The notes below the pieces were generated by a model. That model searched no databases, was not told the DNA's origin, and saw nothing but the letters and a program-made list of their open reading frames with translations. A stretch of DNA of 44,027 bases. It comes from an uncultured Spirochaetota bacterium (GTDB lineage Bacteria; Spirochaetota; Spirochaetia; SZUA-6; Fen-1364). The stretch lies in NCBI GenBank assembly GCA_963745235.1, contig CAVUXE010000083.1:1-44027 (forward strand). Reading direction: 5' to 3'. The translations under genes were made by a program, and so were the position numbers. Of the stretch, positions 13,142-41,643 are shown in pieces (position 1 is the first letter of the stretch; each line of letters opens with the position of its first letter).

Positions 13142-13142
13142 C

Positions 13143-17514: not shown

Positions 17515-17786
17515 ATGAATACCCTTCTGCTCTGGCGGCAGCACACGCAGGGGGTGATCCTGGAAAGATGGGCTGACATCCTGTGGGCCGCCGACATCTC
17601 TCTGGGAGCGCAGATAGTCGGCAACCTGCTCCTGTGCTTTTGTCGGCCACTCCTGTTCACCGCGTTCATGCCACGCTGGTAAAGGTGCTGACCATCATCG
17701 GGATTGGCGGCGCGCTGATCGGGCTCGTGGTCGAGCTGGCGCGGCTCATCCGCGGGGCCAGCCGACTTACAGAAAACGCTCCATGA
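17515..17786 (+). CDS. Small hypothetical membrane protein, frameshifted or degraded
   Basis: ATG 17515 frame gives '...ISLGAQIVGNLLL'; another frame gives TM 'VLTIIGIGGALIGLVVELARLI'. Confidence 0.35.
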
Positions 17787-19202
17787 GCTGCGGCACCGTC
17801 AGGCTCTCCAATCGCCTGCGGTCTTTGAAGAGCGTGAGGATCTCGTCGACCCGGTCCGCGCGCAGCTCTCCGGAGAGGTTTTCCCGCAGCTTGTCGAACA
17901 GCAGCGGCAGACCCTCGGCGCGTCGACGCCTGTGGCCAATGGGGTACTCCACCGCGACCTCTCTCCGTGCAGCTCCCGTCATCGAAGAAGATCTGCAGGG
18001 AGTTTGCAATGGAGCGCTTCTCCGGATCCAGGTAGTCGGCGGTGTAGCGGGGGTCTTCTTCCATCTCCATGCGCTCCCGCAGCCGGTCGATGCGGGGGTC
18101 GCGCGCCGTTTCTTCCTCGTAGTGCTCGGCGCGCAGGTCGCCGTGGATCAGCGCGACGGCAACCGCGTACTGGAGGCAGTGGTCGCGGTCCGCCGGGTTG
18201 GCAGAGCGGGCCGCGCTTGTCGATGATGCGAAGCGCCGACTCCTGCGTGTCGGATGTGGATGCGCCTGATGCGGTCCAGGCGATCCTTCACCCGGGCGTG
18301 GAGGGCAAGGGCGGCCTCGACGGCGGTCTGCGCGTGGAACTCGGCGGGGAAGGAGATCTTGAAGAGGATGTTCTCCGCGACGTAGGAGCCGAAGGGCCGG
18401 CCCACGCGCAGGGGCTGCCCCTTCATGACAGCGTCCTGGAATCCCCACCGCGGGGCGGAGAGCGCCGTGGCGTAGCCCGGCTCTCCCGCCATCCCCATGA
18501 GGGCCAGGCGCACGCCCCGGGCCGTCGCGTCCCCCGCGGCCCAGGACTTGCGAGCGCCCGTGTTCGGCGCGTGGCGGTAGGTCCGAAGCGGACCCAGGTC
18601 GATCCACGCGTTGGAGAGGACATCCGCGATCCGCTGCGCGTCGCCGCCCAGCAGCCACGTGGCCGTGGCGGCAGTGGCCACCTTGACCAGGATGACGTGA
18701 TCCAGGCCCACGCGGTTGAACGAGTTCTCCAGGGCCAGGATGCCCTGGATCTCGTACGCCTTGATCTGGGCTTCCAGCAGCTGCCGCACGGTCACGGGCC
18801 GCCGGCCCCGGCTTTCTCCTGCGGCTCACCCAGTCGGCGACTGCCAGCAGGCCGCCGAGATTGTCCGAGGGGTGGCCCCATTCCGCGGCAAGCCAGGTGT
18901 CGTTGTAGTCCAGCCAGCGGATCATGGAGCCGATGTTGAACGCGGCCTGCACGGGGTCCAGCTCGAAGGCCGGTCCCCGGCACCCTGGCTCCCGGCGACA
19001 TCACCGCGCCCGTCCACGACGGGTCCCAGCCTGCGTCGGCATTCCGGGAACTGCAGCGCAAGCATGGCGCAGCCCAGGCTGTCCGCGAGGCTCCAGGACG
19101 CCGCGTCCAAGGCCGCGTCGCTCTCGATCGGGCGCTCGCACGACGTAGTCGGCAATGTCGGCGAGAAGCCGTCGGTGCCGCGTCCGCCCGGCGTGCGCTC
19201 AT
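17767..19202 (-). CDS. prpD: 2-methylcitrate dehydratase (multiple frameshifts)
   Basis: '[10 protein letters not shown]', '[21 protein letters not shown]', 'RKSWAAGDA', '[16 protein letters not shown]', '[11 protein letters not shown]', '[11 protein letters not shown]' in successive frames. Confidence 0.92.
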
Positions 19203-20332
19203 TCCGCTTCGTCCGCCACCAGCGGGACATACACCCGGGGCTCGGGGCCGGTGTATCGGCTGATGGGACGGATCAGCTTGTTGTTGGAGCGCTGCTCGAT
19301 GATGTGCGCCATCCAGCCGCTGATGCGCGCCAGGACGAACATGGGCGTGTACAGCTCGGTCGGGATGCCGCAGAACCGGTAGGCAAGGGCGCTGTAGAAG
19401 TCCAGGTTGGGGAACAGCTTCTTTGCATCCCACATCACGCTGCTCGATCCGCTCGGCGACGTCGAACAGGCGTTTCTGCTCGGGATCCGACGGCCAGCCT
19501 GCCCGCCCACTCCTTGATGACCGGTGGAGCGGGGATCGGAGACCGTGTAGATGCGGTGTCCGAAGCCCATGATCTTTTCCTTGCGCTCCAGCCGTCCAAG
19601 GATCCCCCTCTCGGCTTCATCGGGGTCCGCGGTACGCCTCGATCAGCTTCATGGCCTCCTCGTTCGCGCCGCCGTGCAGCGGTCCCGCAAGGGCGCCGAT
19701 GGCCCCGGCCACGGCGGAGTGAACGTCTGACATCGTGCTGATGATGACGCGCGCCGCGAACGTGGACGCGTTGAACTCGTGCTCCGCGTACAGGATGAGC
19801 GACACATCCAGGCACCTGCGCAGGTCTTCCGCGGGCAGGCTGTCCGTGCAGCCCGTGGAGGAAGTAGCCGGCCAGCGTATCCTCGTTCTCGGGCAGGTCC
19901 CTGCCAAGGCGCTGCAGGACAACGGATGGAAGCACGGCCAGCAGCCTGTCCGCCGTTCGCCAGCACGTCCCTGCCTGCTCCGGCTCGAGGTTGCCCAGCA
20001 GGGAGACGGCAGTTCGCAGGATGCCCATCATGCTGTCCCCGGGAGGGATCTCTCTCAGCACCCGGGAGAGAACAGGCGGCAGCTGCCGCAGCTTTCTGCA
20101 GCTTCTGGCGGTACTCGGCAAGCTCTGCGGGCGCGGGAAGCTCGCCCCGCAAGAGGAGCCATGCCACCTCTTCGAAGCCCGCATGCGCGGCCAGGTCCTC
20201 GATGGAGTATCCGCGGTAGCTCAAGCCCCGGCCCTCGATCCCGACAGTGCAGATGGCGGAGTCTGCGGCCACGATGCCCGCAAGGCCGCCAACCTTCTTC
20301 ACGTCGGCGAACTTGCGTTCGTACTCAGCCAT
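19199..20332 (-). CDS. prpC: 2-methylcitrate synthase (multiple frameshifts)
   Basis: 'GLAGIVA..SAICTV...LSYRGY', '[17 protein letters not shown]', 'GPLHGGANE', 'MGFGHRIY...DPR', 'FPNLDF', 'NNKLIRP'. Confidence 0.92.
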
Positions 20333-21196
20333 GTCTCTGCTTCCGTTCCTGCGCTTCGTAGCCCAGAAGATCGTAGAGCTCCACCCTGTCATGCATCTGC
20401 CGCCACCACCTCCGCCTGCGTCCCCTGCTCGCGTATTGCGCTCAAGCACCGCCGTGGCGGCGCTGTTCATGGCGCGGCTCGCCGAGAGCGGGTACAGGGC
20501 CATGTCCACGCCCGCTCCGGCAAGCTCCGAACGCGTGAAAAGAGGGGTCAGCCCGAACTCCGTCAGGTTGGCAAGCACGGGCAGCCCTGTCGCCTCTTTG
20601 AACAACCGGTACTGCTCGAGCTTTCCCAGGGCCTCGGGGAAGATCATGTCCGCCCCCGCTTGAGCATAGGCGGCTGCACGCTCCAGCGCCCGGTCGAGCC
20701 CCTCCACCGCCACGGCGTCCGTGCGGGCCATGATGACAAACCCGCGCTCTGTGCGCGCATCGACGGCTGCCCTGATCCGGGCCACCATCTCCTGCTCGCT
20801 GACCAGAGCCTTGCCGGGCCTGTGACCGCAGCGCTTGTCCCCTACCTGGTCTTCCATGTGAATGGCGGCAACCCCGGCCCGCATCATCTCCCGCACCGTG
20901 CGCGCGATCATGAGCTCGGCGCCGAAACCGGTGTCCACGTCGACCAGCAGCGGCAGGTCCACTGTGCCCGTGATGCGCCGGGCGTCCTCCAGCACGTTGT
21001 CCAGGGTAGTCACGCCAAGGTCAGGCAATCCGAAAGAGAGGTTCGCCACTCCGGCGCCCGAGAGGTAGATGGCCCGGAAGCCGATCTGCCGGGCCATGAG
21101 CGCCACCAGCGCGTTCGACGTTCCTGCTATTTGCAGCGGTCTCTCTTCTGTCAGCGCTTTGCGGAAGCGGTCACCTGCACTGCCACTCTCCGGCAT
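20325..21196 (-). CDS. prpB: Methylisocitrate lyase (frameshift near C-terminus)
   Basis: 'YLSGAG', 'LPDLG', '[15 protein letters not shown]', '[10 protein letters not shown]'; C-terminus '[10 protein letters not shown]' in shifted frame, stop at 20325. Confidence 0.94.
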
Positions 21197-23457: not shown

Positions 23458-25991
23458 ATGGCAAAATCAGGCAAGGCGGGAGCATCAAAGAAGGCCAACG
23501 CAAAAAGCGGCGCCCCTCGGAAGGCCCCGAAAAGCAGGACAGCGGAGAAAGACCCCCAGGTGGAAGTCCTCAGGGAGGACTTTCTCCACAACAGGAGGTT
23601 CGCGCTCGCGAAGGACGAGTACAGCGCCACGGCTCGCGACAACTTCAACAGCCTTGCGCTCGCCGTGCGGGACAGGCTCATTGACCGCTGGCTTGCGACC
23701 CAGCAGAGCTACTACCGGCAGGACTGCAAGAGGGTGTACTACCTGTCCCTGGAGTTTCTCATAGGGCGGACCCTGGGGAACGCCCTCTTGAACCTGGGAT
23801 TGACCGGGAGCGCGGAAGCGGCCGTGCGGAAGCTGGGCTCGCGCCTGGAGGACCTCGAGGAGCTGGAGCACGACGCCGGGCTGGGAAACGGGGGGCTGGG
23901 ACGATTGGCCGCGTGCCTGCTGGACTCCATGGCCACGCTGGCCATCCCCGCGTACGGGTACGGCATCCGCTACGACTACGGGATATTCTTCCAGAGAATC
24001 CTCGGCGGGCGGCAGGTGGAGACACCCGACAACTGGCTCCGCCACGGGAACCCCTGGGAGATCGAGCGCCCCGAGCACCTGTACCCGGTCCATTTCTACG
24101 GCCGGGTTGCGCAGAAGACGGGCACTGAGGGGCGCACGGTTTTCGACTGGGTGGAGACCCAGACCGTCATGGCAATGGCCTATGACACGCCTGTGCCGGG
24201 ATACGGAAACGGCATGGTCAACAACCTTCGCCTGTGGTCGGCAAAGAGCACCCGTGAGTTCGATCTTGACTACTTCAATCACGGGGACTACGAGAAGAGC
24301 GGTCTCCGACAAGGACAGGTCAGAGACCATCACCAAGGTGCTCTACCCGAACGACAACGTGTTCGAAGGCCGCGAGCTGCGGTTGAAGCAGGAATACTTC
24401 CTGGTCTCGGCAACGCTCCAGGACATCATGCGTCGCTTCCGCAAGGGAGGCTCGTCGGCTCACGGGTCTCCCGGAAAAAGTGGCCGTTCAGCTCAACGAC
24501 ACGCACCCCTCGGTGGCCATCCTGGAGCTGATGCGCCTCCTCATGGATCGCGATGGCCTTGGATGGGACGAGGCCTGGGACATCACGGTGAGGACCTTCG
24601 GGTACACCAACCACACGGTCCTCCCGGAAGCGCTGGAGAAATGGCCGCTGGACCTCCTGTCCCGCCTGCTCCCGCGCCATGCCCAGATCCTCCTCGAGGT
24701 CAACCGCAGGTTCCTGGAAACCGTCTCGGCGCGATGGCCGGGGGACGCCGAGCGGCAGCGGCGCTTGTCCCTGATCGAGGAGGGAAGCGAGAAAAGGGTC
24801 CTCATGTCCCACCTCGCCATCGTGGGCAGCCATTCCGTCAATGGCGTCTCTTCCCTCCACACCGACATACTGAAAAAGGAGCTCTTCCCGGACTTCTTCG
24901 CTTTGTGGCCGGAGCGGTTCAACAACAAGACGAACGGGATCAGTCAGCGGCGGTGGCTGAAGCTGTGCAACCCGGGCCTTGCTGAGCTGTTGAACGAGTG
25001 GATCGGACACGGCTGGGACACGGACCTGGAGTGGCTGACCAAGCTGGCTCCGCTTGCGGATGAGGAAGGATTTCGACGGCGTTGGCGGGCAGTGAAGCAG
25101 CGGAACAAGAAGGAGCTGGCGGGCGTGATCCATCGGCTCACGGGCGTGACAGTGGACCCGGACTCTCTGTTCGACTGCCAGGTAAAGCGCATCCATGAGT
25201 ACAAGCGACAGCTCCTCAACGCGCTTCACGTCATTCACGTGTACCAGCGAATCAAGGCGGACCCGGGGGCTGACGTCGTGCCGCGGACGGTCATTTTTGC
25301 GGGCAAGGCCGCGCCCGGCTACGCGATGGCAAAGCTGATCATTCGCCTGATCCTGGCCGTAGCGGAGAAGGTGAACAGTGATCCGGACGTTGCCCGCCGG
25401 CTGAAGGTGGTGTTCCTCCCGAACTATGGAGTCAGCCTCGCGGAGAGCATCATTCCCGGCGCTGATCTCTCGGAGCAGATAGCGCTGGCAGGAACGGAGG
25501 CTTCGGGTACGGGGAACATGAAGCTTTCCCTGAACGGCGCGCTGACCATCGGAACTCTTGACGGCGCAAACGTGGAGATCAGGGCGGAGGTGGGGGCTGA
25601 GAACTTCTTCCTGTTCGGCCTGAGCGCGCAGGAGGTGGCAGAGAGAAAGCGCGCCGGCTACGATCCCCGCGCAATTCACGGGGCTGACCCCCGGCTTTCG
25701 CGGGCCCTTGAGCTCGTGTGGAGCGGCGCCTTGTGCCCCCAGGAGCCGGATGCGTTCAAGCCCGTTGTGCGAGCGCTCCTTGACGGCGGAGACCAGTACA
25801 TGCTGCTCGCGGACTTCGACTCTTACGCGGCATGCCAGGAGCGGGTTTCCGCGGCATTCAGGGACCAGGATAGCTGGTCCCGCATGTCCATTCTGAATGT
25901 CGCCCGCATGGGGAGATTTTCCAGCGACCGCACCGTGCGGGAGTACGCGGATGAGATCTGGGGAGCAAGGCCGGTTGCCGTGGATTCTTGA
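23458..25991 (+). CDS. glgP: Glycogen/starch phosphorylase (frameshifts ~24297 and ~24460)
   Basis: '[11 protein letters not shown]', '[13 protein letters not shown]', 'LRLKQEYF', 'QLNDTHP', 'KRIHEYKRQ', PLP site 'EASGTGNMK'. Confidence 0.96.
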
Positions 25992-27442: not shown

Positions 27443-28387
27443 TCATTTTCCGCGAGCGAAAAACGGCCACTGGCGTGAGCCTGGCAGCGCATACGTGTTC
27501 ACGAGGTTTATCAACTGGACGCGATTGCTCACGTCAGTCTTGCGATAAATGTTATAGACGTGATTCACCACGGTCCGGCGGGAAATGAACAGGAGGTCTC
27601 CGATGTGGGCCTCCGTGTTGCCCTCAAGGATGAGGCGGATGACCTCACGCTCGCGGTCGGAGATGCCAAATGTGTGCGCGAACAGATCCGGCACCTCCCA
27701 ACCGGTCCTGTCGTGCGGGGCAACGATGAAGCGGACGACGAGCACGATGCTGAGCGTGGAATAGGCTGACAGCCAGAGCAAAGACGCGGCGGGTACATGC
27801 CCCCAGGCGACGTTGTCGGGCAGGAGAAAAGAGGCCAGCTCGAAGAACAGCATGACGGGCAGGACGACAAGACCTGTTGCCAGGAATGCGCGAATGACCG
27901 CTCGCTGGTCCTTGTCCGTCACCGCGCGCGTGCCTGAGATCAGGATGGCGTACCCATACCCTATCCAGACGATCCTGAGGATTATGCGGACGGCGGCCAC
28001 CACCCGGTCCTGGGTCAACCCCTCGATTGCCACCAGAGCTCCGAGGGCTGCGACGACCAGACAGTACAGAGCGCCGCGACCCGCCGAGATTCGTACACCG
28101 GCTACTCCATGGGCAATCCGTGGCACGCCGTAGCCGAGCAGCATCTCCCCGGACAAGCCGAAAAACATGAATGACAGGACGAAGTAGAGATCGGTTCCGC
28201 TTGCTGTCGATCGCAGGTAGTGCGTTGCGGCGTTCGCCATGATCAACAGCGTACCGCCGAGCATGATCAAGCCCCAGTACAAGTACGCGGGGCTCGCGAA
28301 ACGCGCATGCAGCAACAGGCTGAGAGCGACGACCACGAATCCCGCGACAGTGGTAAGGAAGTAGGCAAGAGCGAGTGCATGAATCAT
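27443..28387 (-). CDS. Multi-TM membrane protein with C-terminal LuxR-type HTH regulator domain
   Basis: About 7 hydrophobic helices, then 'FGISDREREVIRLILEG.T...I.D.LFIS..TV.NHVYNIY.K..V.NRVQL'; alternative start 28393. Confidence 0.88.
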   Translation of the reverse strand: MIHALALAYFLTTVAGFVVVALSLLLHARFASPAYLYWGLIMLGGTLLIMANAATHYLRSTASGTDLYFVLSFMFFGLSGEMLLGYGVPRIAHGVAGVRISAGRGALYCLVVAALGALVAIEGLTQDRVVAAVRIILRIVWIGYGYAILISGTRAVTDKDQRAVIRAFLATGLVVLPVMLFFELASFLLPDNVAWGHVPAASLLWLSAYSTLSIVLVVRFIVAPHDRTGWEVPDLFAHTFGISDREREVIRLILEGNTEAHIGDLLFISRRTVVNHVYNIYRKTDVSNRVQLINLVNTYALPGSRQWPFFARGK

Positions 28388-28539
28388 GACCATCCCTGGA
28401 TCTCGACCAGCAGCCTGACGACTTTCAAGGGGGAGTCTGTCACAGCCGGCGCCGTGATCATGCACCGGCCCGTTTCTGCAACAACAAGGGCGGCGACGGA
28501 GACCAGGACTATGGCCGCAAGGAGGATACTTTTCTTCAT
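28384..28539 (-). CDS. 51-aa putative secreted peptide
   Basis: MKKSILLAAIVLVSVAALVVA-ETGRCMITAPAVTDSPLKVVRLLVEIQGWS; classic Sec signal; TGA overlaps the LuxR ATG (ATGA). Confidence 0.6.
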   Translation of the reverse strand: MKKSILLAAIVLVSVAALVVAETGRCMITAPAVTDSPLKVVRLLVEIQGWS

Positions 28540-28658: not shown

Positions 28659-29054
28659 CTATACGGCGACCAGGACCCACCCCGATTCGACTTTGGCCTT
28701 GTACGTGTGAATGGATTCGGTTCTGATCTGCTTCATGAGCATGTCGGCATTCCTGAGAAATGCATCGATCCGCGGAGGCGGAGGCTCGTTTCCCAGGAAA
28801 GGAGGGACCGGCCCCGAAAGGGCCTCTCCCGTGGTGACATCGAACTGGGCACAGTGCATGGCGCAGGTGAGTATGGTGCCCTCGAGCGTTCCTCTGTCCA
28901 GCGGCGCGTTCATGTGCCCGCAACGCCGATCTATCGCATAGAAGCTCCCGCCGCAATTGCAGATGACGAGCTCCCGACCGTTCAGCTCGACCGCCTTCAT
29001 TCCTCCGGCGGCAACCTCGTCGGTTTTCACGGCCCTGACGAAGGTATCACTCAA
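28659..29054 (-). CDS. Rieske [2Fe-2S] ferredoxin with C-terminal insertion
   Basis: CGH ... CAMH ligands; 'FDVTTGEALSGP'. Confidence 0.92.
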   Translation of the reverse strand: MSDTFVRAVKTDEVAAGGMKAVELNGRELVICNCGGSFYAIDRRCGHMNAPLDRGTLEGTILTCAMHCAQFDVTTGEALSGPVPPFLGNEPPPPRIDAFLRNADMLMKQIRTESIHTYKAKVESGWVLVAV

Positions 29055-29382
29055 GTCCCAATTCCTTCGCCGGCACCTGCGGCAGGCTGTCCGGGTCCGT
29101 GACGTCCTGGTGGACGAACAGCCCGCACCAGCAGCGCTTCATTGCGTCGAAATGCTTGCGATGGAACGGGATGCACGGGCAGACGATCTTCATGTCGCGA
29201 GAGCGGTCGTGACGGATCGGCTGGCAGGGACAGAAAGGAACACCGTGCCTGGTCTCCAGCGTCACCTCCTGCTCCAGGAGAAAGTCCGCCAGCTCGGCGT
29301 CCGGGGTGAACTTGTACCCCATGGGCCCGACGAGCTTGTCGAAGAACATGCGCAGCGCTCTCTTTCTGGATTCCGTGTTCAC
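29047..29382 (-). CDS. Ferredoxin:thioredoxin reductase catalytic subunit-like
   Basis: CPC ... CPC ... CWCGLF; 'GYKFTPD'. Confidence 0.9.
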   Translation of the reverse strand: MNTESRKRALRMFFDKLVGPMGYKFTPDAELADFLLEQEVTLETRHGVPFCPCQPIRHDRSRDMKIVCPCIPFHRKHFDAMKRCWCGLFVHQDVTDPDSLPQVPAKELGLE

Positions 29383-29636
29383 GTGGCGCCGCTCCCTATG
29401 CCGAGCAGCTCGGCGAACCGGTCTGGCCGGTAGCCTTCGACGACCTGGTCGCCAATGCGAACGTAGGGAAAGCCGCTGGCCCCGTTTGCATCGAGCTCAG
29501 ACATGATTCGTGCCTGGGTCGGCTCGTCGGCGAGGTCGTAATCAGTGAAGTCAAACTGGATATGATGTTCGGTGAAGAACTTCTTCGTCTTCCTGCACCA
29601 CGGGCAGGTGGACAGGGTGTACATGCTGACCTTCAT
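29379..29636 (-). CDS. Glutaredoxin (NrdH-like)
   Basis: 'MYTLSTCPWCRKTK', cis-Pro 'GFP', 'VEGY'; SD aggagg. Confidence 0.92.
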   Translation of the reverse strand: MKVSMYTLSTCPWCRKTKKFFTEHHIQFDFTDYDLADEPTQARIMSELDANGASGFPYVRIGDQVVEGYRPDRFAELLGIGSGAT

Positions 29637-29651
29637 CTATCTGCTCCTCCT

Positions 29652-29957
29652 CTATCCAACGCTGACATACACCTTGCCCGCCTCGACCTTCGCCGGGTAG
29701 ACAGCGATGCCGATCTCGGGGGCATCGAGGAACCGACCGGTCGTGATGTCAAAGCGCCAATCGTGACACGGGCAGGTGAGGGTATGGCCGTCCAGGGTGC
29801 CGCTGAAGAGCGCGCACGCCATGTGAGCGCACTTGCCCGCGACGGCGCGGATCTCTCCATCCACCCGCGCCACCACGACATTGACCCCCAGCGGGTACAC
29901 CGGCGCCATCTCGCCATCCCGGAGCGCCGAATCCTCCAACACGTATGTCCACGTCAC
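29652..29957 (-). CDS. Rieske [2Fe-2S] ferredoxin
   Basis: CAH ... CPCHDWRFDITTG; GTG start inferred 7 nt after TATACT. Confidence 0.9.
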   Translation of the reverse strand: MTWTYVLEDSALRDGEMAPVYPLGVNVVVARVDGEIRAVAGKCAHMACALFSGTLDGHTLTCPCHDWRFDITTGRFLDAPEIGIAVYPAKVEAGKVYVSVG

Positions 29958-30099
29958 AGATCCAAGTATACTGCCTGGGTCAAGAGCCGCAGATGCCGTC
30001 ACAGGCACACGTTGGCTTGCAGGGGGAGCTCCTTTGGGGGAGCTTGAGGCCACTCGGCTCGAAGCCGGATGGCGGAAAGCCAACACTCTTTGGGGGGGC

Positions 30100-30135
30100 T
30101 TGACAGACTTATCCCATTTAGCTAAATTGCTAAAT
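30100..30135 (+). promoter_or_regulatory. ars promoter with ArsR-type operator
   Basis: TTGACA-17-TAAATT; perfect inverted repeat ATTTAGC-TAAATT-GCTAAAT (30116-30135) centred on the -10. Confidence 0.8.
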
Positions 30136-30139
30136 AACC

Positions 30140-30458
30140 ATGGATACAAAGACATCGCAGAAGTACGAGCGCCGTTCAAGGGTTATCAAGGCCCTGGCAC
30201 ATCCCAGCCGGCTGTACATCGTAGACAGGCTTGCCGAGCACGAGCACTGCGTCAACGAGCTCACCACGCTCGATCGGCAGCGAGATGTCTACCGTCTCCA
30301 AGCACCTGAGCGTCCTGAAAAACGCCGGTGTCGTCCAGGACGAGAAGCGGGGGGCCTCCATCTACTACTCCCTGCGGATCCCCTGCATCCTGAACTTCTT
30401 CAAGTGCGCTGACGCTGTTCTCGAGGCCATCAAGAAAGAGCAGAACGCTCTCGCTTAA
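30140..30458 (+). CDS. arsR: ArsR/SmtB family repressor (frameshift ~30272)
   Basis: 'KALAHPSRL.I...L...EHCVNEL' joined to 'STVSKHLSVLKNAGVV...KRG..IYYSL'. Confidence 0.9.
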
Positions 30459-30501
30459 GGCTTGAAGGGCGGAAGGCCCAAATACCGATCTGGAGGACTC
30501 A

Positions 30502-31608
30502 GTGGAAACCAAAGTCATAGGCAGGCTTTCGTTCCTGGACCGCTTCCTCACGCTGTGGATCTTTCTGGCCATGGCAGTGGGGGTGGCGCTGGGCTATTTC
30601 ATCCCCGGCGTCGAGGGGTTCATCAACCGATTCCAGGTCGGGCACCACGAACATCCCCATCGCCATCGGGCTCATCCTGATGATGTACCCGCCGCTGGCC
30701 AAGGTGCGCTACGAGGAGCTTGGCGACGTGTTCAGGAACTGGAAGGTCCTCGGCCTGTCGCTGGTGCAGAACTGGGTGATCGGCCCGATCCTCATGTTCG
30801 CCCTGGCCCTCATCTTCCTCCACGGGTATCCCGCCTACATGACGGGGCTGATCATGATCGGCCTGGCGCGCTGCATCGCCATGGTGATCGTGTGGAACGA
30901 GCTGGCGAAAGGCGACTCGGAGTATGCCGCGGGGCTTGTGGCCTTCAACAGCATCTTCCAGGTGCTCCTTTACAGCGTTTACGCCTGGGTCTTCATCACC
31001 GTGCTGCCGCCCCTCTTCGGGCTTGCAGGGAACGGCCGTGCACGTCACCATCGGCCAGATCGCAAAGAGCGTCTTCATCTACCTCGGCATCCCCTTCATC
31101 GCGGGGTTCCTCACCCGCTTCATCCTCGTCCGGGTGAAGAACAAGGAGTGGTATCACAAGCGATTCATCCCCAAGATCAGCCCCATCACCCTGGTGGCAC
31201 TGCTGTTCACGATCATCGTGATGTTCAGCCTCAAGGGAAACCTCATCGTGCAGATTCCCCTCGACGTCGTGCGGATCGCCATCCCGCTGCTGATCTACTT
31301 TCTGGTGATGTTCCTTGCAAGCTTTTTCCTCAGCCGCGCAGTTGGGGCCGACTATCCCAAATCCGCCACTCTCTCCTTCACCGCGGCGAGCAACAATTTC
31401 GAGCTGGCCATCGCGGTGGCCGTGGCCGTCTTCGGAATCGGATCAGGGGTTGCTTTCGCCGCGGTCATCGGTCCCCTGGTGGAGGTGCCGGTGCTCATCG
31501 GTCTGGTGAACGTCGCGTCTGTGGTTCCGGAAGAAGCTTTTCGCGTCCGACGGTGCGCAACTGCAGGCCGCGTCGGCTTCGCGCAAAGGCAGCGGGCAGG
31601 TCCGTTGA
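30502..31608 (+). CDS. acr3: Acr3 arsenite efflux transporter (frameshifts ~30642, ~31030, ~31519)
   Basis: '[16 protein letters not shown]', '[14 protein letters not shown]', 'GLARCIAMV', '[15 protein letters not shown]', 'GPLVEVP'; restored C-terminus ends TGA 31606-31608. Confidence 0.93.
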
Positions 31609-32705
31609 TGAGACAGCGAATGCCGCCGAGGGCGGCGGCCGCGCTGCCGGCGGAGCGGAGCACTCCCGGACATTCCAAGGCCGGAAAGTGGGTGGCGTGG
31701 GCGGTCATCGCTCTTGCAGGCGCAGCCGCCTGGTGGCTTGCGTACACCAATCTCGAGCGCTTCGCCAATTGGCTGGTCTACGCCGCGCTTGGGATGACCG
31801 CCGGCAGCAGGCTTGCTTCGGCGATCGCGTTCTTCGTCTACGAGGCTCCCAAGGTCCTGATGCTCCTGCTTGTCGTGGTGTTCGGGGTGGGAATCGTGCG
31901 CTCCTTCTTCACCCCGGAGCGCACCCGACGGCTTCTTGCCGGCCGCAGGCAGACACTGGGAAACGTGCTGGGCTCGCTCCTGGGCGTGGTGACTCCCTTC
32001 TGCTCCTGCTCCGCGGTGCCGCTTGTTCATCGGCTTCGTCACCACGGGGGTCCCCCTCGGGGTCACCTTCTCCTTCCTCATCGCCGCTCCCATGATCAAC
32101 GAGGTCGCGCTCGTCCTTCTCTTCGGGCTTTTCGGCTGGAAGGTCGCGGCGTTGTACCTGGGCACGGGGCTGGTCATCGCCATGGTTGCAGGTTGGGTGA
32201 TCGGGAGGCTGCGCCTGGAGCGCTGGGTCGAAGGCTGGGTGTACGCGACGGTGCCCGCGGCTTCGCGGCCGGGAAGGAAGAGCGGCTGAGCTGGACGGAG
32301 CGTCTGGCACTTGGCCGCGATGCGGTGAAGGACATCGTCGGCAGGGTCTGGCCGTACGTGCTTGCGGGAATCGCGGTCGGCGCAGGCATCCACGGCTACG
32401 TCCCCGAGCAGCTCATGGCCTCGATCATGGGAAAGGGAGCCTGGTGGTCCGTGCCGCTGGCGGTGGTGATCGGGATCCCGATGTATTCCAACGCCGCAGG
32501 AATCATTCCCGTCGTGCAGGCGCTGCTGGAAAAGGGCGCCGCGCTGGGAACGGTGCTTGCATTCATGATGTCGGTGATCGGCCTGTCGCTGCCCGAGGTG
32601 GTGATTCTGCGCAAGGTGCTGAAGATGCCGCTGATCGCCACATTCGTCGGCGTTGTCGGTGTCGGCATCCTGATCGTCGGATATCTGTTCAACATCGTGC
32701 TGTAG
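31608..32705 (+). CDS. arsP: ArsP/DUF318 family permease (compensating frameshifts ~32025 and ~32265)
   Basis: '[10 protein letters not shown]', '[16 protein letters not shown]', 'HGYVP', 'PMYSNAAG', 'LSLPE'. Confidence 0.88.
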
Positions 32706-32744
32706 CCGCGGGCCCGGGCCCGCAATCAAGAGGAGGGAACGAAC

Positions 32745-32981
32745 ATGAAGATTGAAGTACTGGGAACGGGCTGCCCGAAGTGCATGAGCGTGGAGCAGAA
32801 CGTGAAGAAGGCTCTCGCGGAGCTCGCCGTTCAGGCGGATGTGGAGAAGGTGACCGACATCCAGCAGATCATCCAGAGGGGTGTCATGTCGACGCCGGCC
32901 CTGGTGATCGACGGCAAGGTGGTGCTCCAGGGGAAGAACCCCACGGTGGAACAGCTCAAACAGCTCATCACGGGGACATGA
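32745..32981 (+). CDS. Small redox-active disulfide protein (MTH895-like thioredoxin)
   Basis: 'IEVLGTGCPKC', 'GVMSTPALVIDG'; SD ggagg. Confidence 0.92.
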   Translation: MKIEVLGTGCPKCMSVEQNVKKALAELAVQADVEKVTDIQQIIQRGVMSTPALVIDGKVVLQGKNPTVEQLKQLITGT

Positions 32982-32984
32982 ATC

Positions 32985-33254
32985 ATGAAAAGCTATGGAA
33001 CATGGAAGGGAACGCCGCGGGAACAGATCCCCTGGTATCCGACAGTCGATCCCGCCAAGTGCGCGGGTTGTCGGAAATGCTTCGAGTTCTGCAGCCACGG
33101 CGTGTACGGCTGGGACGAGGCAGCGAATACTCCGAAGGTGCTCGAGCCTTTCCAGTGCGTGGTGGGGTGCAGCAGCTGCTCCCACGAGTGCGAAGAGGGA
33201 GCGATTACTTTCCCTCCTCTGACGATCCTGAAAGAGTTCGTGAGGAGCACATGA
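32985..33254 (+). CDS. 2x[4Fe-4S] ferredoxin
   Basis: CAGCRKCFEFC and CVVGCSSCSHEC. Confidence 0.9.
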   Translation: MKSYGTWKGTPREQIPWYPTVDPAKCAGCRKCFEFCSHGVYGWDEAANTPKVLEPFQCVVGCSSCSHECEEGAITFPPLTILKEFVRST

Positions 33255-33593
33255 TTCGCACAACGATCAACGCGGGAGTATGCGGGTTCCATACTACGGT
33301 GGCGGCCCGGTCTGACGACATGCAGATGGTGAGCCTGGAGATAGCGAGCGATTGCGAGAAGATCCGCGGCCTGGCAGAAGCACTGGCTGCGCCTGATCGA
33401 CGCCTACCAGGAGATCGGAGACGGGTTCGATGGAGTCGTCCTGAAAGCAGCTCGCGCTCACCTGGATGGCTGCTGTGCAGGCTGCGCCGTGCCCAGCGGC
33501 ATTTTCAAGTCCGTTCAGGTGGCGGGAGGCGTTGCGCTACCAGCCCCCGTCTCTTTCAGCATCGAGCGGGTAGAGGAATCCGCGCGAGCGTAA
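33251..33593 (+). CDS. Cys-rich hypothetical protein, DUF6951-like (frameshift ~33393)
   Basis: 'INAGVCGFHT...IASDCEKI' joined to 'IDAYQEI...GCCAGCAVPSGIFK.VQVAGG.ALP'; SD gagga. Confidence 0.7.
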
Positions 33594-33787
33594 GCGGCTC
33601 GTCAAGAATGTGAGACGTTACCGGTTGCTCGTTCTTGCCGTGGGGGCCGGCCTGACCCGTCTGGGTGCCGCGCGAACAGATGATCAAGCTCATGGGCGAG
33701 AAAAAAAGGCGCAAGCATGCGAAACGGAGGTGAGCTCTTGAGATCTATCCGAGCTATTCCGTCGACCTGGCCATGTGAGGTCCTGCG

Positions 33788-34543
33788 ATGTCTGTGATTG
33801 TCTACACCGTGAGCGCGGTTCTGGTGTTCGTGTTCTCCGGCCTTCTTGCGATGGCCGGGCTGGGTGCTGCGTTCCTCTTCGTGCCGCTCTTCTACTACCT
33901 GGGCGTGCCGCTCGCTGAAGCCACTCCGACCGCACTTCTTCTGAATGTGGTGAGCCTCCTGTTTGCCGCCATCAACTACTGGCGCGCAAAGCTCATCAAC
34001 TGGCCAGTCGGACTGCCCGTGCTTGTGACGGCTGTGATCCTGTCCCCGCTGGGCGCGCTGCTCACGCCACGGGTGAACAAGAGTGTGCTGCTGTGGATGT
34101 TCTCAGGCTTTCTGGTTTTCGCCGGAATCATGATGCTTTTCTTTCAGGCGCGAAGGCGGAAAAAGGAAATGGGCCGTGTGGTGGAAGCCGCTGCAGGTGT
34201 CGGCGTCGGGGGCGTGGCCGGTTTCCTGGGAGGGCTCCTGGGGGTGGGGGGCGGCAACTTCATCGTGCCTGTGCTGAACTGGCTGGGGCTCGACCCGAAG
34301 GTGGCAGCGGGAACCACCGCACTTGTGGTGGTGTTCTCTTCGCTTTCGGGCTTTCTGGGCCACGCCACCCTCGGTGGCCTTGACCCGTTGTTCCTCGGCA
34401 TTACCGCGTCAATGGCGGCGGCGGGCTCCATAGTTGGATCTCAGATTATGAAAACCAAGATATCCGCAAACCAACTGAAAAGGATGATTGGCATCCTTCT
34501 TTGGCTGATAGCAGCCAAGATGATCTGGGACCTGATCAAATAG
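33788..34543 (+). CDS. Sulfite exporter TauE/SafE family protein
   Basis: About 8 TM; 'AGLGAAFLFVP' and 'GLLGVGGGNFIVP...AAGT'. Confidence 0.9.
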   Translation: MSVIVYTVSAVLVFVFSGLLAMAGLGAAFLFVPLFYYLGVPLAEATPTALLLNVVSLLFAAINYWRAKLINWPVGLPVLVTAVILSPLGALLTPRVNKSVLLWMFSGFLVFAGIMMLFFQARRRKKEMGRVVEAAAGVGVGGVAGFLGGLLGVGGGNFIVPVLNWLGLDPKVAAGTTALVVVFSSLSGFLGHATLGGLDPLFLGITASMAAAGSIVGSQIMKTKISANQLKRMIGILLWLIAAKMIWDLIK

Positions 34544-34563
34544 CGCGGAGCAAGGAGGCCTTC

Positions 34564-35160
34564 ATGGCAAAGCGTTTCATCCCCCCCGATTGGGCATTCG
34601 AGTTTCACGCTCACGAGTGCCCCTTCATGCCCATTGGATATCGTATGGGCAGTCTGGCGCTGGAATACCTTGGCGTGGAAAAGGAAGCCGACCACGGGTT
34701 CTTCGTCTTTCCCGAGCTGGGTGAAGGCCACCCTCAGACCTGCATGATGGATGGGATGCAGGTGGCAACAGGAGCCACCTATGGCAAGGTGATGATCGCC
34801 AAGACCTTTTACGGAAAGCTCGCGGCGACTTTCTATCACCCGAAGAAGGGTGCGGTGCGCTACTCACTCTTGCCGGAGTTCAGCGACGCGATGGGCAAGT
34901 TCGAGTTCTTCGGCTATCGCAAGAAGGGCGTCGAGCCGTCGCAGATACCATTGGCGGTGCGTCGGGAGGTCATCCAGTGGGTCTATGACCAGCCGGATGA
35001 TGCAATCTTCAAGGTGGAAGCAAAGCCTGATTTCCGCTACACCCCGCCCAAGGGCTCGTTCAACAAGGCCAAATGCAGCGTGTGCGGCGAGTATGTGTTC
35101 GAACGATATGTGCGAACAAGAGATGGGAAGCCGATGTGCATCCCATGCTCAGGATATTGA
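34564..35160 (+). CDS. fmdE: FmdE family protein with C-terminal zinc finger
   Basis: 'FHAHECP...G.R', 'CMMDGMQVATGATYGK', CSVCGE...CIPC; SD aaggagg. Confidence 0.88.
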   Translation: MAKRFIPPDWAFEFHAHECPFMPIGYRMGSLALEYLGVEKEADHGFFVFPELGEGHPQTCMMDGMQVATGATYGKVMIAKTFYGKLAATFYHPKKGAVRYSLLPEFSDAMGKFEFFGYRKKGVEPSQIPLAVRREVIQWVYDQPDDAIFKVEAKPDFRYTPPKGSFNKAKCSVCGEYVFERYVRTRDGKPMCIPCSGY

Positions 35161-35181
35161 AGGATACGAAGGAGCAAAGAC

Positions 35182-35790
35182 ATGGACAGGAACGACGAAT
35201 TGTACAAGGTTGGACTGGCGCTTCACGGACACAAATGTCCTGCGATGCCTCTTGGTCTGCGCGCGGGCCTGGCTGCGATGGAAGCTTTGGGCGTGCGTCA
35301 CGCCGCCGACGGACAGCTGACCGCGCTCGTGGAGATCGACCGCAATCACTGCTCTACATGCTTCGCAGATGGCGTGCAGGTTGCGACGGGTTGTACCTTT
35401 GGAAAGGGTAATATTCGCAGCCTGGGGTACGGCAAGTTCGCACTGACGCTGATCGACACCAAGACGTCGCGGGGCGTTCGCGTTGTAGCGACCCCGAAGA
35501 CAATCCGCCAGAACCAGGACTCGGAGTTCCTGCACCAGCGCAGGCAGGGAGTCCCCGCCTCCCAGATCAACGCCACCCTGGCTGAGCCGCTGATCGATAG
35601 GGTACTGGCTGATCCGGTTGAGGCGCTCTTCAACGTCGAGCCGATCAAACAGCTGACGCTTCCCCCGGTGCCGCCGCATGCCTTCGACACCATCGTCTGT
35701 GCCGAATGCGGAGAGATGGCGGTGGAGCGCTACGCCCGTGTAAAGCAAGGCAAGATCGTGTGCATGCCCTGCGCGGAGAAGATTGGGTGA
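35182..35790 (+). CDS. fmdE: Second FmdE family protein with C-terminal zinc finger
   Basis: 'LHGHKCPAMPLGLR', 'CFADGVQVATGCTFGKGN', CAECGE...CMPC. Confidence 0.9.
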   Translation: MDRNDELYKVGLALHGHKCPAMPLGLRAGLAAMEALGVRHAADGQLTALVEIDRNHCSTCFADGVQVATGCTFGKGNIRSLGYGKFALTLIDTKTSRGVRVVATPKTIRQNQDSEFLHQRRQGVPASQINATLAEPLIDRVLADPVEALFNVEPIKQLTLPPVPPHAFDTIVCAECGEMAVERYARVKQGKIVCMPCAEKIG

Positions 35791-35793
35791 GCG

Positions 35794-35960
35794 ATGAAAA
35801 TTGCATGAGCCAGCACTTTGGTCGCGCCCCGTTCTAGGTTGTCCTCACCGTCGAGGATAACAAGGTCATTGTGCGCGAGAAACGCGACAGGATGTCCCAC
35901 GCCCAGTTTGCCGGCGAACCACATGGGCATGGCGCGCACGCCAGCAATGGACACGGTTCG
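35794..35960 (+). pseudogene. Remnant of a NifB/NifX (dinitrogenase FeMo-cofactor-binding) family gene
   Basis: MKIA, then 'SQHFGRAPF*VVLTVEDNKVIVREKR..MSHAQFAGEPHGHGAH'; deletion after MKIA, TAG at 35835, C-terminal half absent. Confidence 0.65.
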
Positions 35961-36029
35961 ATCTGGAGTCACAAAACCGGCATGCTCGCATGGCGGAAGG
36001 GGAAGGAACAAAAAGTGAAGGAGGGCACG

Positions 36030-36422
36030 GTGGGAAGGATGCTGCGCGGTGTGGCCGCGCTTATGGTGCTCACTGTCATTCTGGCTGCATGCCATAGAAC
36101 GCAAGGCTCAAGGGCACAGGGCCCGGAATCTGCGCCCGATGCGCTCGTTACTTTCGTAGAGCTTGGATCGGTCAGCTGCATCCCCTGCCGAATGATGCAG
36201 CCGATAATGCGAGACATCGAGAATACATACCAGGGACAGGTAAAGGTCGTTTTTCACGATGTCTGGACCGAGGAAGGGAAACCCTATGGAAAGACCTACC
36301 GGGTCCGTGTGATCCCTACGCAAGTGTTCCTTGACTCGAAGGGCATCGAATACTACCGCCACGAGGGGTTCTTCCCAAAGGACCAGCTTCTCACGGTTCT
36401 CAAGACAAAGGGAGTGAAATGA
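36030..36422 (+). CDS. Thioredoxin family lipoprotein
   Basis: Lipobox LAAC; 'ELGSVSCIPC', 'IPTQVF', 'RHEGF'; SD aaggagg before GTG. Confidence 0.88.
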   Translation: MGRMLRGVAALMVLTVILAACHRTQGSRAQGPESAPDALVTFVELGSVSCIPCRMMQPIMRDIENTYQGQVKVVFHDVWTEEGKPYGKTYRVRVIPTQVFLDSKGIEYYRHEGFFPKDQLLTVLKTKGVK

Positions 36423-37120
36423 GCCTGGTCGCGGCCGTATTCGCCGCGATCACAAGCTGGCTCGAGGCCTCGACCGGCATCGCGATCGGGGCTGCGTTCA
36501 TCTGGGGCGTCAGCTCCGTGGTCCTCTCTCCCTGTCACGTCGCGAGCGTCCCGTTGGCCATCGGGTACGTCAACGGCAAGGGCAGAACAATGCCGAAGAC
36601 AGCATTTCTGCTTTCCCTGGCGTTCGCTCTGGGAATCCTGGTCACCATCGTGGTGGTGGGCGGTGTCACCGCCGCTCTCGGCAGGATGCTCGGCGATGTC
36701 GGGGCGTTGAAGTACGTGGTGGCCGTCATATTCGCAGCGGTCGGGTTGTGGCTGATCGGCGTCATGCGGTTGCCGGACTTGAGCACGAAGAGTACCGCTG
36801 GGCTGCAGGGACGCGGTGCAACGGGAGCCTTCGCACTAGGTCTGCTCTTTGGCCTCGCTCTTGGTCCATGCTCATTCGGGTTCATGATGCCGCTGCTCGC
36901 AGTCGCTTTCCGACATGCCGCCACGCAACCTGTTGCCGCCGCCGGGCTCATTGGCGCATACGCCCTCGGCCACACGGCGGTGATCGTCGCAGCAGGGACT
37001 TTCGCAAACCTCGTTCAGCGTTGGCTGGATTGGAACGAGCAATCATCAGGCACAAAGATCATTCGCATAGTCTGCGGCGCGCTCGTCATCCTGGCGGGAA
37101 TTGCCATGGTCTTGTCTTGA
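36419..37120 (+). CDS. ccdA: CcdA/DsbD-beta transmembrane electron transporter
   Basis: Two PC motifs (LSPCH, LGPCS), about 6 TM; ATGA overlap with the thioredoxin gene. Confidence 0.88.
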   Translation: MSLVAAVFAAITSWLEASTGIAIGAAFIWGVSSVVLSPCHVASVPLAIGYVNGKGRTMPKTAFLLSLAFALGILVTIVVVGGVTAALGRMLGDVGALKYVVAVIFAAVGLWLIGVMRLPDLSTKSTAGLQGRGATGAFALGLLFGLALGPCSFGFMMPLLAVAFRHAATQPVAAAGLIGAYALGHTAVIVAAGTFANLVQRWLDWNEQSSGTKIIRIVCGALVILAGIAMVLS

Positions 37121-41578: not shown

Positions 41579-41643
41579 CCCACAAGTGTACTGCCCAAAC
41601 CCTGCATCGCCGGAGTATATTAGTGCTTCAGAGTGAGCGCGCA

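Follow-up and report, generated by a model that had tools for sequence, protein, structure and literature searches.

The window, meaning the whole analysed stretch of 44,027 nucleotides from an uncultured Spirochaetota bacterium, carries a four-gene cassette that is best read as a disulfide-reductase system resembling FDR, in which Rieske proteins act as the one-electron partners, at a probability of roughly 0.55. According to ORF translations and Pfam, the cassette lies on the minus strand and encodes, in this order, a Rieske protein (RieskeB), a CPWC glutaredoxin-like protein (Grx), a protein resembling the FTR catalytic subunit with the motifs CPC/CPC/CWC, and a second Rieske protein (RieskeA).

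Table 1. Genes of the cassette and their positions in the window
Gene	Position	Strand	Product	Start codon	Active site	Pfam family
RieskeB	29652..29957	-	101 aa	GTG at 29957		PF00355
Glutaredoxin-like (Grx)	29379..29636	-	85 aa		CPWC	PF00462
FTR-catalytic-like	29047..29382	-	111 aa	GTG		PF02943
RieskeA	28659..29054	-	131 aa	TTG		PF00355

The first-pass annotation had described four compact genes, two Rieske proteins flanking a glutaredoxin and an FTR protein, with the last three genes overlapping. ORFs and Pfam confirm this arrangement: the Grx gene overlaps FTR by 4 nt, FTR overlaps RieskeA by 8 nt, and RieskeB is spaced 15 nt from Grx. The end coordinate of 29970 given for the cassette lies about 13 nt too far. 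The ORF containing RieskeB extends from 29652 to 30179 and matches PF00355 (E 1.4e-19, 70.2 bits, cut-off 20.3) with a Rieske domain beginning at ORF residue 76; because homologues begin at the GTG at 29957 and the match to TodB starts at residue 1, the shorter gene of Table 1 is adopted. Intergenic gaps of about 190 nt and 180 nt flank the cassette, which leaves no space for a further gene beside it. A search for inverted repeats and promoters around the cassette found no promoter-like or terminator-like site belonging to the cassette itself. Frameshifts are present in the window. An FTR variable subunit and an oxygenase, both noted earlier as absent nearby, were indeed found neither among the window ORFs scanned nor in a scan of 150 immediate neighbours of related loci, for which ORFs outside the cassette were chosen with GC3 weighting. 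Likewise, no ferredoxin reductase gene occurs around the cassette in the window or among these 150 neighbours.

Judged by its gathering score and its three cysteine pairs, the FTR-like protein can be assigned to the FTR catalytic subunit family PF02943 (FeThRed_B; E 6e-24, 84.6 bits, cut-off 22, profile positions 5-98 of 106). Its cysteine motifs are spaced as CPC-x14-CPC-x13-CWC. In an alignment of 64 sequences, C51, P52, C53, C68, P69, C84, W85 and C86 do not vary, and at least 90% retain C70. Among solved structures it matches 4tpu_A (8e-09), 7pwe_A (2.6e-08) and the cyanobacterial FTR 1dj7_A (1.2e-03), and its cysteine pairs align with the cysteines of 1dj7_A and 4tpu_A. It is presumed to be a [4Fe-4S]/disulfide enzyme, its cofactor content being deduced from the sequence.

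The third motif is CWC instead of CHC, as first reported, and its tryptophan is invariant in 64 of 64 homologues. Its status as a peculiarity of this protein does not hold, because CWC is common in prokaryotic FTR-like proteins. The full three-motif pattern occurs in 111 of the 150 best family representatives, and the middle residue of the third motif in these 111 is W in 28, Y in 27, H in 20 and F in 17, so that W, Y and F together account for 72. The two closest solved structures, 4TPU and 7PWE, have CYC in the column of the window's CWC. A search of the protein collection found 763 relatives of the FTR-like protein, the best 120 of which are 73-92% identical to it.

The Grx-like protein matches PF00462 (E 1.6e-10, 41.4 bits, cut-off 22.9), and its active site lies within a conserved LSTCPWC.K.K motif found in at least 90% of 80 Grx-like sequences. 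In NCBIfam it comes closest to the YruB family TIGR02196 (4.8e-15, 55.8 bits, below the cut-off of 88.55); the NrdH-type family TIGR02194 is also matched (4.9e-09, 36.3 bits, below the cut-off of 85.75). With both scores under the curated cut-offs, the protein is a member of neither family by NCBI's criteria, although it shares with YruB- and NrdH-type proteins a short thioredoxin fold with a CxxC site, which is CPWC in the window. Its best structural matches are the CVWC glutaredoxins 5cax_A (1.3e-10) and 3nzn_A (1.6e-09); a further match is to the N-terminal half of 7pwe_A (residues 5-85, 3.2e-03). A search of longer relatives for fusions to a target enzyme returned one match, which carries no second domain.

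Both Rieske proteins can be placed in PF00355, since they score above the cut-off and all 64 aligned sequences of each family keep the CxH...CxxH ligands. RieskeA (E 4.5e-16, 59 bits, cut-off 20.3) has the motifs CGH...CAMH with C45, H47, C64 and H67 invariant. It also contains an insertion of about 30 aa ahead of the last strands and a further conserved cysteine, C32, present in at least 90% of the 64 aligned sequences. Its alignment to the best PDB matches, 5bok_A (2.6e-13) and 2qpz_A, ends at about residue 86-88 and picks up again weakly at 112-127. RieskeB has the motifs CAHMAC...CPCH, in which C43, H45, C48, C62, C64 and H65 are invariant in all 64 sequences. Beyond the cluster ligands these include a second cysteine pair, C48 and C64, in the pattern CxHxxC...CxCH known from bc1/b6f-type and sulredoxin-type Rieske proteins, a pattern that RieskeA lacks. 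The top PDB matches of RieskeB are TodB (4emj_B, 1.4e-14) and other oxygenase Rieske ferredoxins. Its match to the NCBIfam sulredoxin model is weak (4.6e-12, 46.1 bits against a cut-off of 170), which places it outside that equivalog.

By sequence, the two proteins are thus closest to the Rieske ferredoxins of oxygenases (TodB, the NDO ferredoxin 2qpz_A, 5bok_A, BphF, CarAc) and to archaeal sulredoxin, which are likewise small and soluble with CxH...CxxH ligands. They differ from the oxygenase ferredoxins in having no oxygenase or ferredoxin reductase gene beside them, in the extra cysteine pair of RieskeB, in the insertion and additional cysteine of RieskeA, and in NCBIfam oxygenase-ferredoxin equivalog scores of 45-55 bits, far below the cut-offs of 113-150.

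The association of these genes was surveyed in the best 80 of 161 relatives of one FTR subfamily, all at 64% identity or more; being confined to close relatives, the survey is silent on more distant FTR-like proteins. The order RieskeB-Grx-FTR-RieskeA on one strand is found in 74 of these 80 loci, 73 of them compact and one with a 1.7-kb insertion. Conservation of the Rieske genes beside FTR and Grx homologues, the check proposed at first pass, is therefore borne out, and the recurrence of this four-gene order puts the arrangement far beyond chance. The remaining six loci comprise three truncated by contig ends and three without a gene: L076 and L078 are without RieskeA, and L070 is without Grx and RieskeB. 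In the 67 strictly scored loci, FTR and RieskeA are separated by a median of -8 nt and overlap in 40, whereas Grx and FTR are separated by a median of 2 nt and overlap in 29. The loci bear 18 phylum labels, among which Bathyarchaeota, Promethearchaeota, Nanobdellota and Thermoplasmatota are the four archaeal ones, and many carriers are, according to their record titles, MAGs from peat, fen, soil and groundwater. One carrier (locus L002) is the complete genome of "Candidatus Ferrigenium straubiae strain KS". FTR, RieskeA and RieskeB show correlated pairwise distance matrices (Spearman 0.51-0.67; none of 500 permutations reached the observed value), as would also be expected from shared ancestry alone. 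It is proposed that the cassette moves, and is inherited and transferred, as a unit.

Natural fusions link the same partners. Among 18 longer relatives, five combine Grx with FTR (PF00462 and PF02943) and eight combine FTR with Rieske (PF02943 and PF00355). Single-chain Grx-FTR examples include P0123-P0126, and Grx and FTR also read as one ORF in loci L003 and L007. All eight FTR-Rieske fusions carry the Rieske domain at the C-terminal end, with CWC and the four Rieske cluster ligands invariant; an extra cysteine pair of the RieskeB type is not kept. The fused Rieske domains score closely against RieskeA (61-75 bits) and RieskeB (61-70 bits), which favours neither as their origin. Since both kinds of fusion exist, the Rieske proteins belong to the thiol-redox module, as the first-pass annotation had suggested and as the conserved gene order also supports. 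The partners may also make physical contact. A complex prediction with FTR as partner of RieskeA and RieskeB scored 0.88, against 0.83 for a control with RieskeA replaced, and so speaks neither for binding nor against it. An AlphaFold2 model of the FTR-Rieske fusion, built from the eight sequences, has a mean pLDDT of 71.6, a pTM of 0.54 and values below 50 in the cluster-binding stretch, a confidence too low for the domain geometry to be derived from it.

Few routes are known for the reduction of thioredoxin- and glutaredoxin-type proteins, namely NADPH flavoenzymes, ferredoxin-dependent FTR, ferredoxin-dependent flavoenzymes, deazaflavin-dependent enzymes and FDR. The closest solved relative, 4tpu_A, is labelled "Rubredoxin" and is presumably the FDR of M. 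acetivorans; it joins an FTR-like domain to a rubredoxin domain on the C-terminal side. Like the window protein, this FDR has CPC/CPC/CxC motifs with an aromatic residue replacing the histidine, has no variable subunit, and is associated with an extra one-electron metal centre, which lies C-terminal of the FTR-like part. In PMC6262447, FDRs are described as archaeal and bacterial Fe-S enzymes with a relationship to FTRc, one of which reduces a Methanosarcina thioredoxin, so that a small thioredoxin-like protein as substrate is a further likeness. The Methanosarcina enzyme differs in its fused rubredoxin, in place of which the window has two separate Rieske [2Fe-2S] proteins, and in having CYC rather than CWC; the window protein is a single domain, and the gene of its Grx partner sits inside the cassette.

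Resemblance to other FTR-type enzymes is more partial. The catalytic chain of plant and cyanobacterial FTR (1dj7_A, 2pu9_A, 7bzk_A) shares PF02943 and three aligned cysteine pairs with the window protein, but the match is distant (E about 1e-03), CHC stands there for CWC here, and a variable subunit is needed there whereas none occurs in the window or among the 150 neighbours. Plant-type FTR works with plant-type ferredoxin and thioredoxins; the corresponding genes of the cassette encode Rieske proteins and a Grx-like protein. The 196-aa chain 7pwe_A ("Ferredoxin-thioredoxin reductase subunit B"), whose residues 97-173 match the FTR-like protein, combines the Grx-FTR pair in one chain and differs in having CYC and no Rieske domain. 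A literature search found no paper on this structure. It also found no open-access description of a Rieske-FTR cassette, which agrees with the initial view of the module as undescribed; earlier FTR/FDR papers might mention such neighbourhoods.

In the favoured reading, the products of the four genes would make up a single soluble and self-contained system for disulfide reduction, of the FTR/FDR type. RieskeA and RieskeB would be dedicated one-electron partners that deliver electrons to the FTR-like enzyme, replacing both the ferredoxin that serves FTR, be it plant-type or [4Fe-4S], and the fused rubredoxin of Methanosarcina-type FDR. With a [4Fe-4S] cluster beside a redox-active disulfide, the FTR-like protein would, like FTR, use two single electrons to make a dithiol and hand it to the CPWC Grx-like protein, which would then reduce target disulfides. 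The role of the system is probably to keep thiols reduced under oxidative or thiol stress in carriers living in anoxic or redox-fluctuating habitats. Counting against a reductive function is the cysteine pair of RieskeB, which is typical of higher-potential Rieske proteins. Moreover, Rieske ferredoxins have potentials of about -150 mV and reduce less strongly than the ferredoxins driving FTR, so the reduction of a Grx-type disulfide would be close to energetically neutral or slightly uphill.

If the favoured reading is true, an FTR-like enzyme wired to Rieske proteins would be a further input to thiol redox control, and two families of "orphan" soluble Rieske proteins would gain a function. 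As the cassette is found intact under 18 phylum labels and in many MAGs from wetlands, soil and groundwater, it may be important to anaerobes and microaerophiles in withstanding redox swings. A bolder and rather speculative proposal is a "Rieske:glutaredoxin reductase", a new class comparable to thioredoxin reductase, in which each Rieske protein serves one of two chemically different one-electron steps in the [4Fe-4S]/disulfide mechanism of the FTR-like enzyme, or the same enzyme reversed as a thiol:Rieske oxidoreductase. The two Rieske proteins would then be non-equivalent, one with a bc1-type disulfide and the other with an insertion and an extra cysteine. Disulfide reduction by such an enzyme would be independent of oxygen-labile low-potential ferredoxins.

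The Rieske proteins might instead not be donors at all. They could be a structural or protective subunit, a regulated client or a redox sensor, with an ordinary ferredoxin supplying the electrons. The FTR variable chain, whose job is that of a structural or protective subunit, is absent from the window ORFs and the 150 neighbours scanned; the invariant cysteine pair of RieskeB and the nearly invariant Cys32 of RieskeA lie outside the cluster ligands and could be reduced by Grx or FTR; and the loci lacking RieskeA (L076, L078) or RieskeB (L070) imply that neither protein is indispensable everywhere. This alternative is nevertheless unlikely. The cluster ligands are invariant in both Rieske families, and the eight fusions, which keep these ligands and not the cysteine pair, point to the cluster rather than the cysteines as the conserved function. 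In addition, the fused Rieske domain occupies the place of the rubredoxin electron-transfer domain in the closest solved relative.

The genes next to the cassette bear on its physiological role and on the direction of electron flow. In 16 loci the cassette is directly followed, on the same strand and after 21-107 nt, by a gene for an Fe/Mn superoxide dismutase (SOD), and in 17 a gene of the nitroreductase family lies immediately upstream on the same strand. Because SOD adjoins the cassette in these 16 loci, a link to oxidative or thiol stress is probable. All SOD and nitroreductase neighbours fall within Actinomycetota and, being confined to a single phylum, amount to roughly one evolutionary observation; outside this phylum stress genes recur in at most four loci each. 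An FMN reductase gene adjoins the cassette on the same strand in two loci, and further immediate neighbours are KatG (one locus), pirin (three), VIT1 (two) and glutamate-cysteine ligase (one). The nitroreductase (17 loci) or the FMN reductase (2 loci) could feed electrons from NAD(P)H into the system, which leaves the NADPH-independence claimed at first pass unsupported. Neither the 150 immediate neighbours nor the representatives of recurrent neighbours include a conserved reductase for the Rieske proteins.

A reversed flow, in which Grx dithiols are oxidised and the FTR-like protein passes single electrons to the two Rieske proteins and on to an acceptor, is improbable. It would account for the invariant CxHxxC...CxCH pattern of RieskeB, which marks the higher-potential Rieske class, and two separate one-electron acceptors would suit a two-electron thiol oxidation. 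The lack of a low-potential donor or reductase conserved with the cassette also fits. Yet the same neighbour scans of related loci revealed no conserved acceptor, be it an oxidase, a quinone-reactive protein or a membrane protein, and the SOD, KatG and nitroreductase neighbours suit a demand for reducing power. Serine and tyrosine raise the potential of bc1-type Rieske proteins, but box II reads CPCHDWRF in RieskeB and CAMHCAQF in RieskeA and thus lacks both residues. Oxygenase-type Rieske ferredoxins, to which both sequences are nearest, are a low-potential class. The characterised relatives (FDR) are described as reductases. The thiol-to-Rieske direction suggested as possible by the first-pass annotation therefore finds no support.

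Least probable, and very doubtful, is a dedicated supply of reductant to a single enzyme or pathway, either the adjacent arsenic and thiol-redox cluster or, by analogy with an FDR that is reported to deliver electrons to a class III ribonucleotide reductase, such a reductase. In the window, a divergently transcribed arsR-led cluster (arsR-ACR3-ArsP-thioredoxin-like and further genes) begins 180 nt from the cassette. By tblastn, ArsR, Trx_3, Fer4, TauE, FmdE, ArsP and the other neighbours in the window were matched in none of the 80 loci, and ACR3 in one (query ACR3_mid); three of the 18 neighbour queries (ArsP_C, DUF6951 and ACR3_C) were out of frame and contained stops, so that their zero matches carry no weight. 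With ars-type neighbours in at most one related locus, an arsenic-linked function was rejected as a general explanation. Neither a ribonucleotide reductase nor an arsenate reductase was found among the 150 immediate neighbours or the 14 representatives of recurrent neighbours, and the genes beside the cassette vary between phyla.

The cassette consists of four minus-strand genes encoding a Rieske protein (RieskeB), a glutaredoxin-like (Grx-like) protein, a protein of the ferredoxin:thioredoxin reductase (FTR) type and a second Rieske protein (RieskeA). Their translations carry the motifs CAHMAC...CPCH (RieskeB), CPWC (Grx-like), CPC...CPC...CWC (FTR-like) and CGH...CAMH (RieskeA). The FTR and RieskeA genes overlap by 8 nt, those for Grx and FTR by 4 nt, and a gap of 15 nt separates RieskeB from Grx. 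The description of four genes in the first-pass annotation is borne out by the ORFs, Pfam matches, overlaps and translated motifs. Its upper boundary of 29970 lies slightly too far out, since the homologues and the PDB match begin at the GTG at 29957, within a mechanical ORF that extends to 30179. No promoter-like site for the cassette itself was found in the window sequence around it.

Coordinates of the cassette, its local neighbours and SnoaL-like genes adjoining related cassettes
Sequence	Feature	Coordinates	Strand	Description
Window	LuxR/GerE protein	27443-28465	-	340 aa; hydrophobic N-terminal part, C-terminal LuxR/GerE DNA-binding domain
Window	RieskeA	28659-29054	-	131 aa; PF00355, E 4.5e-16, 59 bits (cut-off 20.3)
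Window	FTR-like	29047-29382	-	111 aa; PF02943, E 6e-24, 84.6 bits (cut-off 22)
Window	Grx-like	29379-29636	-	85 aa; PF00462, E 1.6e-10, 41.4 bits (cut-off 22.9)
Window	RieskeB	29652-29957	-	101 aa; PF00355, E 1.4e-19, 70.2 bits (cut-off 20.3)
Window	Promoter-like site upstream of arsR	30100-30128		TTGACA-17-TAAATT, 10/12 matches
Window	Palindrome	30116-30127		12 bp, perfect
Window	arsR-led cluster	30140-37120	+	Divergent from the cassette; begins 180 nt from RieskeB
L002	SnoaL-like gene	4731-5345
L011	SnoaL-like gene	308-823
L023	SnoaL-like gene	4819-5400
L047	SnoaL-like gene	4719-5342
L052	SnoaL-like gene	6758-7360
L024	SnoaL-like gene

The four-gene order is widely conserved. Of the 767 protein-collection candidates, 763 were relatives of the FTR-like protein, the best 120 of which share 73-92% identity and are nearly all 111 aa long. 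With one genome scanned per species, 161 relatives emerged, and the best 80 (64-86% identity) were retained as related loci (L numbers), whose classes were derived from tblastn coordinates and ORF extraction. The compact, same-strand order RieskeB-Grx-FTR-RieskeA is present in 73 of these 80 loci. A strict script test is passed by 67, and six compact loci fall outside it on technical grounds, either because Grx and FTR form one ORF (L003, L007) or because gene calls overlap (L033, L035, L048, L080). One further locus (L063) keeps the order around an insert of about 1.7 kb that separates Grx from FTR, three are truncated where the contig ends (L029, L036, L037), and three do without a gene (L070 without Grx and RieskeB; L076 and L078 without RieskeA). 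Across the 67 loci that pass the strict test, FTR and RieskeA are spaced by a median of -8 nt and overlap in 40, and Grx and FTR are spaced by a median of 2 nt and overlap in 29.

The 80 best loci carry 18 phylum labels, both bacterial (including Acidobacteriota, Actinomycetota, Chloroflexota, Myxococcota, Nitrospirota, Omnitrophota and Planctomycetota) and archaeal (Bathyarchaeota, Promethearchaeota, Nanobdellota and Thermoplasmatota). In the FTR tree, these labels require 25 changes against a minimum of 17, with archaeal rows falling inside bacterial groupings. This pattern would fit some horizontal transfer on top of vertical descent, although a tree of 111 columns is no proof. FTR, RieskeA and RieskeB have correlated distance matrices (Spearman 0.51-0.67; the observed value was reached in 0 of 500 permutations), which fits the expectation for genes that travel together.

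Eighteen relatives longer than the FTR-like protein itself (P numbers) include gene fusions: five combine PF00462 with PF02943 (Grx-FTR) and eight PF02943 with PF00355 (FTR-Rieske). P0121, P0128 and P0138 look like frameshifted read-throughs, while P0123 and P0130-P0137, the latter being the eight FTR-Rieske proteins, look like genuine fusions; P0132 represents 15 member sequences and has an NCBI name. All eight place an FTR part with invariant CWC at the N-terminus and a Rieske part with invariant CxH...CxxH and no extra Cys pair at the C-terminus. A structure model of an FTR-Rieske fusion was of low confidence and is given no weight here.

The closest solved relative of the FTR-like protein is 4tpu_A, an FTR-like protein with a rubredoxin domain (E 8e-09), followed by 7pwe_A (2.6e-08), the N-terminal half of which matches the Grx-like protein. 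Both have CYC in the column aligned to CWC, whereas cyanobacterial and plant FTR chains, which match at only about 1e-03, have CHC. A profile search of 1.84 billion representatives showed how widespread the CWC motif is. Among the best 150 of 359 family members (E <=1e-3), the complete set of three motifs is present in 111 and absent from 39, most of them fragments. In those 111, the central position of the third motif is occupied by W in 28, Y in 27, H in 20, F in 17 and another residue in 19, so that CWC is a common state of prokaryotic FTR-like proteins and no mark of the cassette. The sole NCBIfam match of the FTR-like protein is the "FtrB family double-selenoprotein" model NF041072, at 39.2 bits under a cut-off of 160, and models of glutaredoxin-like selenoproteins ("Uxx-star") are weak matches for the Grx-like protein, which implies that selenocysteine versions of both partners exist in related families. 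The Grx-like protein is otherwise nearest to the YruB and NrdH families, under their cut-offs, and to the structures of CVWC glutaredoxins (5cax_A, 3nzn_A).

Both Rieske proteins find their best matches in the Rieske ferredoxins of oxygenase systems, and every NCBIfam equivalog score is far under its cut-off. RieskeB has an invariant second Cys pair, C48/C64, corresponding to the pair that forms a disulfide in Rieske proteins of the bc1/b6f type. No such pair occurs in RieskeA; its Cys32, outside the cluster ligands, is present in 90% or more of 64 sequences, and roughly 30 residues inserted at about 84-112 are missing from solved Rieske ferredoxins. Either could be a docking or redox-active element.

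In the related loci, ORFs outside the cassette were chosen by a crude GC3-weighted rule, and a Pfam scan covered 150 of 151 immediate neighbours and 14 representatives of recurrent neighbour clusters. The neighbour theme is redox and oxidative stress, with the strongest signal from one phylum. In Actinomycetota, a same-strand nitroreductase-family gene lies upstream in 17 loci (gaps 55-268 nt), a same-strand Fe/Mn superoxide dismutase (SOD) gene downstream in 16 (gaps 21-107 nt), and in 19 loci a divergent gene still further upstream codes for an FAD-dependent protein. The full nitroreductase-cassette-SOD arrangement on one strand (Thermoleophilia and others) includes L040, L042, L043, L045, L049, L056-L059, L062, L072-L074 and L079. 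A highly conserved SnoaL-like protein, with stretches such as HWPDGHQT and FLFWDN, adjoins the cassette in six loci from several phyla, mostly directly upstream on the same strand; its signal- or lipoprotein-type N-terminus looks like that of an exported protein. Pirin recurs in four loci by neighbour clustering, in three as an immediate neighbour. Other cross-phylum neighbours are FMN reductase, VIT1 and a LigB-type dioxygenase (two loci each), and KatG and glutamate-cysteine ligase are single cases.

The cassette combines four families and their conserved cofactor and active-site residues with a fixed gene order, overlaps and fusions. The FTR-like protein would carry a redox-active disulfide next to a [4Fe-4S] cluster and would reduce the CPWC Grx-like protein. 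The Rieske proteins would be its one-electron partners, in the place of the rubredoxin domain in the closest solved relative and of the docked ferredoxin in plant FTR. We give this whole model, with electrons running from the Rieske proteins through the FTR-like enzyme to the Grx-like protein, a probability of about 55%. The reductive direction is favoured because characterised relatives of the ferredoxin:disulfide reductase (FDR) type are described as reductases (PMC6262447). It is also favoured because both Rieske proteins most resemble the ferredoxin class, and because genes for SOD, KatG and nitroreductase beside the cassette suggest that reducing power is called for during oxidant stress. 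The Rieske proteins might instead be subunits, clients or sensors, which we consider unlikely. The main weakness of the Rieske-driven model is that Grx reduction would presumably be roughly level or slightly uphill by potentials; FDR, with its fused rubredoxin, offers a precedent for an enzyme of this kind being served by a centre of rather high potential. Reverse electron flow appears slightly less probable still. Least probable is a dedicated supply line for one enzyme. No reductase, acceptor or target gene was kept throughout among the scanned neighbours of the related loci.

A link between Rieske proteins and an FTR-like enzyme in prokaryotes was not found in a full-text literature search, although an earlier mention is possible. 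Papers containing both "ferredoxin-thioredoxin reductase" and "Rieske" apparently concern other subjects, mostly in plants, algae and cyanobacteria, to judge by titles and abstract openings. The cassette would be a disulfide reductase of the known FTR/FDR type whose electron partner is of a new kind and whose four genes keep a fixed arrangement.

Many window genes are broken across two or three reading frames (11371-13170, 17666-21196, 23458-25991, 30140-32705, 40693-41812), among them H+-pyrophosphatase, the PrpD/citrate-synthase/PEP-mutase region, glycogen phosphorylase, arsR, ACR3, the ArsP permease and AlkA. The pattern resembles what indel errors in a long-read assembly would leave; the alternative is that pseudogenes are widespread. 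Unlike these split genes, all four cassette genes are intact.

The LuxR/GerE gene, on the same strand about 190 nt downstream of RieskeA, has no counterpart beside the cassette in any of the 80 related loci. The arsR-led cluster encodes an arsR-type regulator, ACR3, an ArsP-type permease, TauE, Thioredoxin_3, a small 4Fe-4S protein, a thioredoxin-like protein, DUF6951, two FmdE-like/zinc-finger proteins and a membrane protein of 233 aa that has no Pfam match; its make-up suggests resistance to metalloids or a thiol-redox resistance function. When translations of the window neighbours were compared with the 80 related loci by tblastn, 12 of 14 queries had no match (three of the 14 were out of frame and carry little weight), and two ACR3 pieces matched one locus each. 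The ars-type neighbourhood is therefore particular to the genome of the window. The -10 region of the promoter-like site upstream of arsR overlaps the palindrome ATTTAGCTAAAT, which could be an ArsR-type operator.
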